Shown: positions 1 to 6,000, counted from the first letter of the stretch. The stretch: DNA of 10,623 nt from Escherichia coli (GCF_003334815.1 NZ_QOWO01000061.1), one strand, 5' to 3'. Numbers are program-made.

Positions 1-3000
1 AGGGGTCGTCTCAGAAAACGGAAAATAAAGCACGCTAAGCCGGTTGCAGAGGCCGTAGCGGCCTGAACTTCCCCGCGCCGATCTTGGCGCTGCTGCGCCA
101 TAGGTAATCACCGGTCAGGTTGATGTGCTCCCAGCCGAGTGGCGACAGGTACTGCAATAGCGAGTCATCGACGGCATGACCATTGCCGCGCAACGCATGC
201 GCCGCACGCTCCAGGTAGACCGTGTTCCACAGCACGATGGCCGCCGTCACCAGGTTGAGGCCGCTGGCCCGGTAGCGCTGCTGCTCGAAACTGCGGTCAC
301 GGATTTCACCAAGGCGGTTGAAGAACACGGCACGGGCCAGCGCATTGCGCGCCTCGCCCTTGTTCAGCCCGGCATGCACGCGGCGGCGTAGCTCGACGCT
401 TTGCAGCCAGTCGAGGATGAACAGCGTGCGCTCGATGCGGCCCAACTCGCGCAGCGCGACGGCCAAGCCGTTCTGGCGCGGGTAGCTGCCGAGTTTCCTG
501 AGCATCAGCGAGGCCGTCACCGTGCCCTGCTTGATCGAGGTGGCCAGCCGCAGGATTTCGTCCCAATGGGCGCGGACGTGCTTGATGTTGAGCGTGCCGC
601 CGATCATCGGCTTGAGCGCGTCATAGGCGGCATCGCCCTTCGGGATGTAGAGCTTGGTGTCGCCCAGGTCGCGGATGCGCGGCGCGAAGCGGAAGCCCAA
701 GAGGTGCATCAGGGCGAAGACGTGATCGGTGAAGCCCGCCGTGTCGGTGTAGTGCTCCTCGATCCGCAGGTCGGATTCGTGGTACAGCAGGCCGTCGAGC
801 ACGTAGGTTGAGTCGCGCAGGCCGACATTGACCACCTTGGTGTGGAATGGCGCGTATTGGTCGGAGATGTGGGTGTAGAAAGTCCGTCCTGGGCTGCTGC
901 CATATTTTGGGTTGATGTGCCCCGTGCTCTTTGCCTTGCTAGCGGTTCGGAAATTCTGTCCGTCCGATGATGATGTGGTGCCATCGCCCCAGTGCCCGGC
1001 AAAGGGATGCCGAAACTGAGCGTTGACCAGTTCAGCCAACGCTGTCGAGTACGTTTCGTCGCGGGTATGCCAGGCTTGCAGCCAAGCGAGCTTCGCGTAG
1101 GTCGTGCCGGGGCAGGACTCGGCCATCTTGGTCAGGCCCAGGTTGATCGCGTCGGCCAGGATCGTGGTCAACAACAGGTTCTTGTCCTTGGCCAGATCGC
1201 CCGATTTCAAGTGCGTGAAGTGCCGGGTGAAGCCCGTCCACTCATCGACTTCGAGCAGCAGTTCGGTGATCTTGACGTGCGGCAGGACCATGGCTGTCTG
1301 GTCTATCAGCGCCTGCGCGGTGTCGGGCACCGCCGCATCCAGCGGCGTGATCTTCAAGCCCGACTCGGTGATGATGGCATCCGGCAGGTCGTTGGCTGCC
1401 GCCATGCGGTTGACGGTGGCAAGTTGTGCTTCCAGCAGCGTCAGCCGCTCATGCAGATATTGTTCGCAGTCGGTGGCCACGGCCAGCGGCAATTCGCTGG
1501 ACTGCTTGAGGCTGGTGAACTTCTCGGGCGGTACCAGGTAGTCCTCGAAGTCCTTGAACTGGCGTGAACCCTGCACCCAGATGTCGCCCGAGCGCAGGGA
1601 GTTCTTCAACTCGGACAGCGCGCACAGTTCGTAGTAGCGCCGGTCGATGCCGGCGTCGGTCATCACCAGTTTCTGCCAGCGCGGCTTGATGAAGCCGGTC
1701 GGTGCATCGGCTGGCAGCTTGCGGGCGTTGTCGGTGTTCATGCCGCGCAGCACCTCAATGGCATCAAGCACGTTTTTGGCGGCGGGCGCGGCCCGCAGCT
1801 TGAGCACGGCAAGGAATTCCGGTGCATAGCGGCGCAGGGTGGCGTAGCTCTCGCCGATGCGATGCAGGAAATCGAAGTCATCGGGTTGCGCGAGCTTCTG
1901 CGCCTCGGTGACGCTCTCGGCAAAGGAATCCCAGGACATGACGGCCTCGATGGCGGCAAACGCATCGCGGCCTGATTGCTTGGCGTCGATCAGCGCCTGA
2001 CCGATGCGCCCGTACAGACGTACCTTGGCGTTGATGGCCTTGCCTGACGCCTGGAACTGCTGCTGATGCTTATTCTTGGCAGCGTTAAACAGCTTACCCA
2101 GGATGCGGTCGTGCAGGTCGATGATTTCGTCGGTGACGGTGGCCATGCCCTCGGTGGCCAGCGCCACGAGAGTGGCGTAGCGCCGTTGCGGCTCGAATTT
2201 GGCCAGGTCGGCGGGTGTCATCTGGCCGCCCTCGCGGGCAATCTTGAGCAGGCGGTTCTGGTGAACCAGCCGCTCGATGCCGGTAGGCAGATCGAGTGCC
2301 TGCCATGCCTTGAGGCGTTCGATGTGTTCCAGCATATGCCGCGAATTTGGCTTGGCCGGAGACTGGCGCAACCAAGCCAACCAGGTCGTCTTGCCGTTGT
2401 CCCGGCGCTTGAGCAGATCGTCGAGGCGGCGGCGATGCGCGTCCGCCAGTGGTTCGGCCAAGGCGTCGTAGATGCGCCGGTTAGCACGGGTGATCGCCTC
2501 GGCACTCGCCCGCTCGACGGCGTTGAGGGCGGGCAGAATGACCGACTGCCGCCGCAGGTGCCCGATCAAGGCGCTGGCCAGCACGATGCCTTTGTCGGTT
2601 TGCATCGCCAGCTCGGTCAGCATCTGGACGGCCTGCCGGTAATGGCTCATGGTGAAGGGCCGGAAACCGAACACGGTTTGCAGCTCGCTCAGGTGCTCGC
2701 GCCGGGTCTGCTCCCGCTGGCCGTACTCGTTCCAGCTTTCGACGCCGACCTTGAGCTGGTCGGCGACCAGCTTCAACAAGGGCGGGAACGGTAGTTCATC
2801 GACGCCCAGGATGACGCCGGGAAAGCGCAGGTAACAGAGCTGCACCGCGAAGCCCAGCCGATTGGCTGGCCCGCGCCGCTGTCGGATGATCGAGAGGTCG
2901 GTATCGTTGAATGTGTAATGTCGGATCAGGTCGTCCTTGGAGTCCGGCAACGCCAGCAGGCTTTCCCGCTCGGCGGCGGACAGGATGGAACGACGTGGCA

Positions 3001-6000
3001 TATTTACTGATCCGTTCTCAAGTATTGATACAGGGTTTCGCGACTGATTCCGAATTCACGAGCAAGCTTGGTCTTTTGCTCGCCAGCCTCGACACGTTGG
3101 CGCAGTTCGGCAATACGCTCAGACGACAGGGATTTCTTCCTGCCACGGTAAGCCCCGCGTTGCTTGGCGAGCGCAATACCCTCGCGCTGACGCTCGCGGA
3201 TCAGGGCGCGCTCGAACTCGGCGAACGCGCCCATCACCGAGAGCATCAGGTTCGCCATCGGAGAGTCTTCGCCAGTAAAACTGAGGTGTTCCTTGACGAA
3301 TTCGATATGCACGCCGCGTTGTGTCAGCGTTTGCACGATCCGGCGCAAATCATCGAGATTGCGCGCCAGGCGATCCATGCTATGCACCACCACGGTGTCG
3401 CCGGTGCGGGCGAAGCTTATCAGCGCTTCCAGTTGCGGACGCTTGACATCCTTGCCGGATGCCTTGTCGCTAAAAGCGCGATCAACCTTGACGCCTTCCA
3501 GTTGCCGTTCCGGGTTCTGGTCGAAGGTGCTGACCCTGATATACCCAATGCGCTGTCCAGTCATGGAATTCCCTGCAAAATGTCAGGGAAGACTCTATGA
3601 CCTTCAACGAGATATGTCAATAAATTCAAAATTCAATCCTATCCTGACGCAATTTACACATGGCATCTGACATCAGGTTAGGGTATGCCTCAACCTGACG
3701 GCGGCGAATCACAAGCGTCCGGTTTGACGCTGGTTTCGGTCGCAGTGCTGGCCCGCGCCTGGAAGCGCTGATAGCACTCCAGCCCGCAGAAATGCTCCAC
3801 GTACTCGGCCCCTTCCGGCGTGAAGGCGGCATCGAGCGGGATTTCCTTGCAGCACACGCAGCAACTGGTGCTCGGTTCATTGGCGTTCATGGTGGTGTTC
3901 CTCCATTGGTTGACGAAGCCGACGAAGGCCGCCGCCGGCATCGGCCTGGCGAACAGGAAACCCTGCACCGTGTCGCAACCCGCCTGCCGCAACCACGCAA
4001 GGCAGTCGGGTGTTTCCACACCCTCGGCTACCACCTCCATTGTCGTTTTCAGAAGACGGCTGCACTGAACGTCAGAAGCCGACTGCACTATAGCAGCGGA
4101 GGGGTTGGATCCATCAGGCAACGACGGGCTGCTGCCGGCCATCAGCGGACGCAGGGAGGACTTTCCGCAACCGGCCGTTCGATGCGGCACCGATGGCCTT
4201 CGCGCAGGGGTAGTGAATCCGCCAGGATTGACTTGCGCTGCCCTACCTCTCACTAGTGAGGGGCGGCAGCGCATCAAGCGGTGAGCGCACTCCGGCACCG
4301 CCAACTTTCAGCACATGCGTGTAAATCATCGTCGTAGAGACGTCGGAATGGCCGAGCAGATCCTGCACGGTTCGAATGTCGTAACCGCTGCGGAGCAAGG
4401 CCGTCGCGAACGAGTGGCGGAGGGTGTGCGGTGTGGCGGGCTTCGTGATGCCTGCTTGTTCTACGGCACGTTTGAAGGCGCGCTGAAAGGTCTGGTCATA
4501 CATGTGATGGCGACGCACGACACCGCTCCGTGGATCGGTCGAATGCGTGTGCTGCGCAAAAACCCAGAACCACGGCCAGGAATGCCCGGCGCGCGGATAC
4601 TTCCGCTCAAGGGCGTCGGGAAGCGCAACGCCGCTGCGGCCCTCGGCCTGGTCCTTCAGCCACCATGCCCGTGCACGCGACAGCTGCTCGCGCAGGCTGG
4701 GTGCCAAGCTCTCGGGTAACATCAAGGCCCGATCCTTGGAGCCCTTGCCCTCCCGCACGATGATCGTGCCGTGATCGAAATCCAGATCCTTGACCCGCAG
4801 TTGCAAACCCTCACTGATCCGCATGCCCGTTCCATACAGAAGCTGGGCGAACAAACGATGCTCGCCTTCCAGAAAACCGAGGATGCGAACCACTTCATCC
4901 GGGGTCAGCACCACCGGCAAGCGCCGCGACGGCCGAGGTCTTCCGATCTCCTGAAGCCAGGGCAGATCCGTGCACAGCACCTTGCCGTAGAAGAACAGCA
5001 AGGCCGCCAATGCCTGACGATGCGTGGAGACCGAAACCTTGCGCTCGTTCGCCAGCCAGGACAGAAATGCCTCGACTTCGCTGCTGCCCAAGGTTGCCGG
5101 GTGACGCACACCGTGGAAACGGATGAAGGCACGAACCCAGTGGACATAAGCCTGTTCGGTTCGTAAGCTGTAATGCAAGTAGCGTATGCGCTCACGCAAC
5201 TGGTCCAGAACCTTGACCGAACGCAGCGGTGGTAACGGCGCAGTGGCGGTTTTCATGGCTTGTTATGACTGTTTTTTTGGGGTACAGTCTATGCCTCGGG
5301 CATCCAAGCAGCAAGCGCGTTACGCCGTGGGTCGATGTTTGATGTTATGGAGCAGCAACGATGTTACGCAGCAGGGCAGTCGCCCTAAAACAAAGTTAAA
5401 CATCATGAGGGAAGCGGTGATCGCCGAAGTATCGACTCAACTATCAGAGGTAGTTGGCGTCATCGAGCGCCATCTCGAACCGACGTTGCTGGCCGTACAT
5501 TTGTACGGCTCCGCAGTGGATGGCGGCCTGAAGCCACACAGTGATATTGATTTGCTGGTTACGGTGACCGTAAGGCTTGATGAAACAACGCGGCGAGCTT
5601 TGATCAACGACCTTTTGGAAACTTCGGCTTCCCCTGGAGAGAGCGAGATTCTCCGCGCTGTAGAAGTCACCATTGTTGTGCACGACGACATCATTCCGTG
5701 GCGTTATCCAGCTAAGCGCGAACTGCAATTTGGAGAATGGCAGCGCAATGACATTCTTGCAGGTATCTTCGAGCCAGCCACGATCGACATTGATCTGGCT
5801 ATCTTGCTGACAAAAGCAAGAGAACATAGCGTTGCCTTGGTAGGTCCAGCGGCGGAGGAACTCTTTGATCCGGTTCCTGAACAGGATCTATTTGAGGCGC
5901 TAAATGAAACCTTAACGCTATGGAACTCGCCGCCCGACTGGGCTGGCGATGAGCGAAATGTAGTGCTTACGTTGTCCCGCATTTGGTACAGCGCAGTAAC

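Follow-up and report, generated by a model that had tools for sequence, protein, structure and literature searches.

The tnpR-tnpA junction of Tn21: a conserved short gap and a possible translational link between resolvase and transposase genes

Gene content at the tnpR-tnpA junction

The region analyzed here is a stretch of Escherichia coli DNA of 10,623 nucleotides (GCF_003334815.1, NZ_QOWO01000061.1), referred to below as the window, whose minus strand carries the resolvase gene tnpR directly upstream of the transposase gene tnpA. This study concerns the junction of the two genes and its possible bearing on transposase expression. Judged by sequence identity, the window represents Tn21 itself, with its transposition module ordered res-tnpR-tnpA on the minus strand: it is 100% identical to Tn21 over 4.3 kb, and positions 1-4300 are 100% identical to many enterobacterial plasmids. 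The following features define the junction:

3004-3564, minus strand: tnpR, serine resolvase of 186 aa, from the listing of open reading frames (ORFs)
35-3001, minus strand: tnpA, Tn3-family DDE transposase of 988 aa, from the ORF listing; its stop codon TAG (37-35) lies within the terminal inverted repeat
2999-3006, minus strand: tnpR stop/tnpA start junction, with TAA at 3006-3004, AT at 3003-3002 and ATG at 3001-2999

Direct reading of the minus strand gives ...ACG GAT CAG TAA AT ATG CCA CGT CGT... across the junction. The predicted TnpA protein matched NCBIfam model NF033527 (Tn3 family transposase) with 1328.7 bits (cut-off 500) over residues 21-969, while TnpR contains the Pfam domains Resolvase (PF00239, 7.4e-38) and HTH_7 (PF02796, 4.9e-15). 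In a plasmid copy (L001, NZ_LT985306.1), the Prokaryotic Genome Annotation Pipeline placed the two coding sequences at 7035-10031 and 10034-10594, likewise 2 nt apart. A first-pass annotation of the window had named both genes, reported this 2-nt spacing and noted that any ribosome-binding site of tnpA must fall within tnpR. These statements agree with the sequence reading, the ORF coordinates, the annotated plasmid copy and the protein family matches. The tnpA coding sequence of L001 is 30 nt longer than that of the window (2997 versus 2967 nt), which indicates an in-frame insertion; the copy is otherwise identical.

Conservation of the stop-to-start spacing

The junction was compared across 80 loci encoding TnpA relatives (70-95% identity) in species-representative genomes. 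Colinear loci, defined by a TnpR homologue directly upstream on the same strand, numbered 37 including the window and provided 35 distinct junction sequences. In all 31 aligned relatives the TnpA N-terminus MPRRS is kept as protein sequence despite synonymous substitutions, and the tnpA ATG is kept in 30 of these 31. The position of the tnpR stop codon agrees to within a few codons across all relatives. On these comparisons both gene boundaries are well supported. At one locus outside the 31-sequence alignment (L053, positions 3001-3003), tnpA begins with TTG in a junction that is otherwise as in L052 (TGA-CC-TTG); this may be either an alternative start or an inactivating mutation.

The distance between the tnpR stop and the tnpA ATG was 2 nt at 26 of the 37 colinear loci, 3 nt at seven, 4 nt at two, and 1 nt and 7 nt at one locus each. 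Counted by distinct junctions, the corresponding numbers were 24, seven, two, one and one. The gap was always positive, and overlapping arrangements (of the ATGA or TAATG form) were found in none of the 35 distinct colinear junctions. These junctions make use of all three stop codons (TAA, TAG and TGA) in 15 stop-plus-spacer combinations, and the C-terminal residues of TnpR differ as well; the 32 distinct tnpR genes are 65-84% identical to that of the window at the nucleotide level. Because apposition without overlap persists while its constituent bases are replaced, the tight spacing is non-random and beyond chance.

The 2-nt spacing is an already known, published hallmark of the Tn21 subgroup, for which the order res-tnpR-tnpA with genes 2 or 3 bp apart has been described (PMC2663772). 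The Tn501-like relatives in our set have the 3-nt gap.

Ribosome binding at the tnpA start

The region upstream of the tnpA ATG contains a single candidate ribosome-binding element:

3011-3013, minus strand: GGA, the only Shine-Dalgarno (SD)-like element for tnpA, at -12 to -10 from the ATG, within the tnpR codons Thr-Asp

The best duplex between the 25 nt upstream of the ATG and the 3' end of 16S rRNA is this 3-bp GGA, at -3.3 kcal/mol. In 1168 windows of tnpR-tnpA coding sequence the mean was -3.15 kcal/mol, and 52% reached -3.0 or lower. The tnpA SD is at chance level, equal to the coding background. The corresponding duplex of tnpR has an energy of -5.1 kcal/mol.

The same analysis of the relatives separated two groups. 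Where tnpA abuts an upstream ORF by at most 7 nt (n=34 distinct junctions), the median SD energy was -3.2 kcal/mol, with 3% at -5 or lower. For free-standing tnpA relatives (n=33) the median was -5.7 kcal/mol, with 67% at -5 or lower, and typical leaders had the form ...AAGAAGGAAACCGC-ATG and ...AAAGGAGTATTC-ATG. The difference between abutted and free-standing genes was significant on distinct junctions (Mann-Whitney p=7e-4). Taken together, tnpA of the window seems to have no effective ribosome-binding site of its own, and the 2-nt gap is of the size expected for a translationally coupled pair on what would be a shared mRNA.

No sign of RNA structure controlling the tnpA start was obtained. 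The junction RNA is not unusually structured in a single-sequence fold (z = +0.67). A conserved structure masking the start was also considered and rejected: RNAalifold applied to 31 junctions returned only a 5-bp helix inside tnpA, with no compensatory (two-sided) changes. Coupling, if present, would therefore take the form of termination-reinitiation, not of structure unmasking.

The translational coupling proposed in the first-pass annotation fits the gap of 1-7 nt, the chance-level SD and the stronger SDs of free-standing genes; its further step, that tnpA depends on tnpR translation, goes beyond this evidence. On balance, the spacing and SD comparisons lean towards a major role for termination-reinitiation at tnpR-tnpA. 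The stricter version, in which tnpA has given up its own ribosome-binding site and is translated only after ribosomes finish tnpR, across a gap of 1-7 nt and never an overlap, is tentative and falls a little short of even odds. If it were true, transposase could be produced only along with resolvase, and reinitiation efficiency, not transcription, would set the TnpA:TnpR ratio. No explicit statement or test of tnpR-tnpA translational coupling was found in the open-access literature searched, and the SD contrast described here is a small addition to a known system.

Promoter and terminator signals and probable co-transcription

The predicted promoter of tnpR, and of the tnpR-tnpA pair, lies upstream of tnpR:

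3592-3620, minus strand: TTGACA-17 nt-TAGAGT, with the -10 hexamer ending 28 nt upstream of the tnpR ATG

This was the only sigma-70-like site found on either strand of positions 1-5500, and it is located in res. A weight-matrix scan scored it at 14.2 bits. Within tnpR no promoter reached the scan threshold, and the best internal site, at 5.7 bits, did not come up to the average of the best scores obtained from codon-order shuffles (6.7 +/- 1.8); 69% of the shuffles reached at least 5.7 bits. Synonymous-codon entropy in the 3' half of tnpR is not reduced (1.0-1.37 versus 0.97 overall, in 32 distinct homologues), which argues against a conserved promoter embedded in tnpR. A leaderless tnpA mRNA produced from a -10 element at the junction was rejected as well: the candidate hexamer TAAATA is without the critical final T, and the bases before the ATG vary among relatives (TAAAT, TGACC, TAGCT).

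No terminator-like site was found between the promoter (3592) and the end of tnpA (35), nor in the longer interval between 4300 and 35. The genes and sites of this part of the window (intI1, IRi, the tnpM/urf2 remnant, res, tnpR and tnpA; 35-5256, minus strand) are all co-oriented. Given this orientation and the lack of terminator-like sites from 4300 to 35, upstream read-through is a possible additional source of tnpA mRNA, and transcripts from the integrase side could in principle continue into tnpR-tnpA.

With neither alternative promoter-like nor terminator-like sites in the way, tnpR and tnpA are very probably co-transcribed. The first-pass annotation had stated that the 2-nt gap implies an operon transcribed from the res promoter. 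The lack of internal promoter- and terminator-like sites supports the operon in part, and "implies" is too strong a word for it. A transcriptome paper covering Tn21 tnpRA was not found in our literature search.

The tnpR leader (3569-3590, minus strand) contains a 7-bp inverted repeat, TTCCCTG/CAGGGAA, that would pair over the tnpR SD (AGGGA). The hairpin is no more stable than those of shuffled sequences (z = -0.87). Transcription is predicted to start near 3585, and the left arm might thus occur solely in transcripts that read through from upstream.

The res region and probable TnpR autoregulation

The predicted promoter is embedded in sequences with the character of a resolution site:

3580-3700, minus strand: res region, comprising a palindrome and four GTCAGR half-site motifs that bracket the promoter
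3673-3698: palindrome TCAGGTT/AACCTGA from the inverted-repeat search, probable site I
3694-3699, 3666-3671 and 3643-3648, minus strand: GTCAGR motifs
3582-3587, inverted: fourth GTCAGR motif, just downstream of the -10 hexamer

Of the 15 GTCAGR matches in the window, four fall within these 118 nt (3582-3699), and the promoter (3620-3592) sits between the motifs at 3643-3648 and 3582-3587. We infer that the motifs and the palindrome correspond to resolvase subsites. The res of this subgroup is described in the literature as consisting of three subsites with site III next to tnpR, and the motif cluster of the window fits this description.

In Tn5393, TnpR represses a tnpR promoter that lies inside res and drives the genes following tnpR (PMC9330008). 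In Tn3 and Tn5401, TnpR and TnpI, respectively, act from res to control the transposase gene (PMC7157771). By analogy with these three elements, and from the positions of the half-site motifs, repression of the 3620-3592 promoter by TnpR is probable in Tn21. The logic of operon and autoregulation is textbook knowledge for the Tn3 family.

Favored interpretation and alternatives

We consider the following interpretation plausible and partly supported, with a probability of about 0.6. tnpA would most likely be the distal cistron of a tnpR-tnpA mRNA initiated at the res promoter (3620-3592), with a possible contribution of read-through from the co-oriented upstream genes. Since tnpA is essentially without an SD and begins 2 nt past the tnpR TAA, most TnpA would be made by ribosomes that finish tnpR and re-initiate directly downstream; transposase output would then be low and proportional to TnpR. 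With TnpR bound to the res subsites on either side of the promoter, TnpR and TnpA would decrease together, so that TnpR would limit both proteins.

Several points weigh against this interpretation, and they are taken up here together with the explanations that they favor. The main rival, which we regard as rather unlikely, accepts co-transcription and proposes that ribosomes initiate independently at the SD-poor tnpA ATG in an unstructured region, the short gap being due to compaction and shared ancestry. It draws on the ordinary folding of the junction RNA and on the lack of a conserved occluding structure in 31 relatives. The minimal GGA stands at a workable distance from the ATG and, as GGA or GAG occurs near the same position in most colinear relatives, this persistent element could serve as a minimal SD for independent tnpA initiation. 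The free-standing tnpA genes of L041, L043, L070-L072, L076 and L077 also have no SD, so tnpA without an SD can exist where no upstream gene abuts it. Moreover, when similar leaders were collapsed into lineage clusters (12 abutted, 24 free), the rank test of SD energies gave a trend only (Mann-Whitney p=0.078) and was no longer significant. Against independent initiation, the gap stays at 1-7 nt in 35 distinct junctions despite changes in the stop codon, the spacer and the TnpR C-terminus. Strong SDs are also nearly absent from the abutted group and common in the free one: clusters at -5 kcal/mol or lower made up 1/12 and 16/24, respectively (Fisher p=0.0013), a contrast that was significant at -4 and -5.5 as well, all three thresholds having been picked after the data were seen.

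A weak promoter of its own inside tnpR, which would leave transposase levels little affected by the res promoter or by TnpR, is less likely still and, in our estimate, quite improbable. Cointegrate formation persists in classical tnpR mutants of Tn21, Tn501 and Tn1721, which is awkward for strict coupling and strict co-regulation, and the continued transposition of insertion and deletion mutants of the subgroup, with accumulation of cointegrates, would be explained by such a promoter. A widespread plasmid lineage in which tnpR is disrupted by IS26 and tnpA is intact would point in the same direction if these copies were active. Consensus scans may, in addition, miss weak or non-sigma-70 promoters inside tnpR. 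The sequence of tnpR itself argues the other way, through an internal score that most codon-order shuffles equal, unreduced synonymous variation in its 3' half and the lack of a conserved -10 element for a leaderless transcript. Two further points bear on the favored interpretation itself. The tnpM report of Hyde and Tu (1985) is said to have claimed opposite effects on transposition and resolution, which would be awkward for strict coupling and strict co-regulation, and, as a caveat, transposition of Tn501 is said to increase when mercury induces read-through from mer. A TnpR-TnpA fusion protein, made by programmed frameshifting or stop read-through, would account for nothing beyond the 2-nt proximity of the reading frames and can practically be dismissed. 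The relative frame varies with gaps of 1, 2, 3, 4 or 7 nt, which rules out a conserved fusion; furthermore, there is no slippery heptamer at ...GAT CAG TAA ATA TG, no conserved downstream structure was found, and the tnpA ATG itself is kept.

In the IS26-disrupted variants, represented by L082 (NZ_CP038182.1, locus ~3600-4450; matches H2-H15), approximately 827 bp of extra DNA including the IS26 transposase gene is present. With an intact tnpA on one side and intI1 on the other, the insertion falls where the window has tnpR, and the records carry no resolvase annotation. Such natural variants, with tnpR disrupted and tnpA intact, would be useful for coupling tests.

Comparison with known systems

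The window does not differ from other members of the Tn21 subgroup (Tn21, Tn501, Tn1721, Tn5051/TnAO22 and Tn1403) in the order, direction and 2-3 bp gap of tnpRA (PMC2663772; 10.1101/2020.12.23.424275). Tn3 and gamma-delta (Tn1000) also have a serine resolvase; in these elements it binds a three-subsite res containing the promoters and so represses transposase expression (PMC7157771), which would parallel the arrangement predicted for Tn21. In Tn3, however, tnpA and tnpR diverge around res, each with its own promoter and ribosome-binding site, and such divergent genes can have neither a shared mRNA nor translational coupling. In Tn5393 (tnpR-strA-strB), the TnpR-repressed res promoter drives a polycistronic unit, which is the logic proposed here for Tn21 (PMC9330008), but the genes downstream of tnpR are resistance genes and tnpA is divergent. 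The tnpI-tnpA arrangement of Tn5401 and Tn4430 is similar in that the recombinase gene is upstream of and colinear with tnpA, and in these elements the recombinase modulates both genes by binding at an internal resolution site (PMC7157771), as is probable for TnpR in Tn21; it differs in the use of a tyrosine recombinase, TnpI, in place of a serine resolvase and in belonging to another TnpA subgroup.

Generic termination-reinitiation pairs, such as istA/istB of IS21-type elements, share with tnpR-tnpA a stop and start within a few nucleotides and a weak distal ribosome-binding site. The istA and istB genes of IS1326 overlap by 14 nt, whereas the Tn21-subgroup junction always has a positive gap of 1-7 nt. 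IS1326 is itself present in the window, where istA (ending at 9115) and istB (starting at 9128), on the minus strand, overlap at 9115-9128. They form a second tightly joined pair of mobile-element genes in the window, one in which the genes overlap and are not separated by 2 nt.

Tn21 and related elements rank among the main vehicles of class 1 integrons and of resistance to mercury and antibiotics, and control of the transposase level thus influences the frequency of their movement. If transcription and translation both tie tnpA to tnpR, bursts of transposition would occur only while no TnpR occupies the res promoter, such as upon entry into a new host, and resolvase would always accompany transposase. 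Altered transposase expression would also be expected in the common derivatives with IS26-disrupted tnpR. These results refine a known system and open no new question.

Surroundings of the transposition module

The remaining features of the element are as follows:

2-39, strand not assigned: 38-bp terminal inverted repeat at the tnpA end (GGGGTCGTCTCAGAAAACGGAAAATAAAGCACGCTAAG), containing the tnpA stop codon
3690-4040, minus strand (4040-3690): urf2/tnpM remnant frame (DUF3330)
ending at 4041: integron repeat IRi, with the tnpM/urf2 remnant frame beginning directly after it
4243-5256, minus strand (5256-4243): intI1

The repeat at 2-39 is the Tn21 terminal repeat; its partner, at the mer end, falls outside the window. 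In L001, the match to the window begins at the terminal repeat, which adjoins unrelated DNA. The neighborhood in L001 comprises intI1, aadA1, qacEdelta1, sul1, orf5 (annotated as a GNAT family N-acetyltransferase) and istAB of IS1326, and the gene order of the window matches it. Such a neighborhood, with a class 1 integron inserted upstream of res, is classical for Tn21/In2. An ORF of 84 aa (3626-3880, minus strand) was considered as tnpM and rejected, being out of frame with the urf2/tnpM remnant, without an NCBIfam match and probably spurious.

A group of relatives differs from Tn21 in the region around the tnpA start. In L020, L021, L022, L028, L044 and L060, and less sharply in L039, TnpA is 84-90% identical to that of Tn21 overall, with only ~55-70% identity in the first 120 residues. 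Upstream of tnpA these loci have a conserved leader with an AAGGAA SD, and their TnpR-like gene is either divergent (33-37% identity) or was not detected. This pattern points to module exchange with a putative breakpoint near the tnpA 5' end. L028 carries, at 2200-3000, a stop-free frame of 267 codons that has no detectable similarity to TnpR and is separated from tnpA by 2 nt. The bases at its end (...GAACGACTGACT-ATG) are similar to those that close a Tn501-type tnpR, and the frame probably represents what is left of a tnpR, joined to other sequence.

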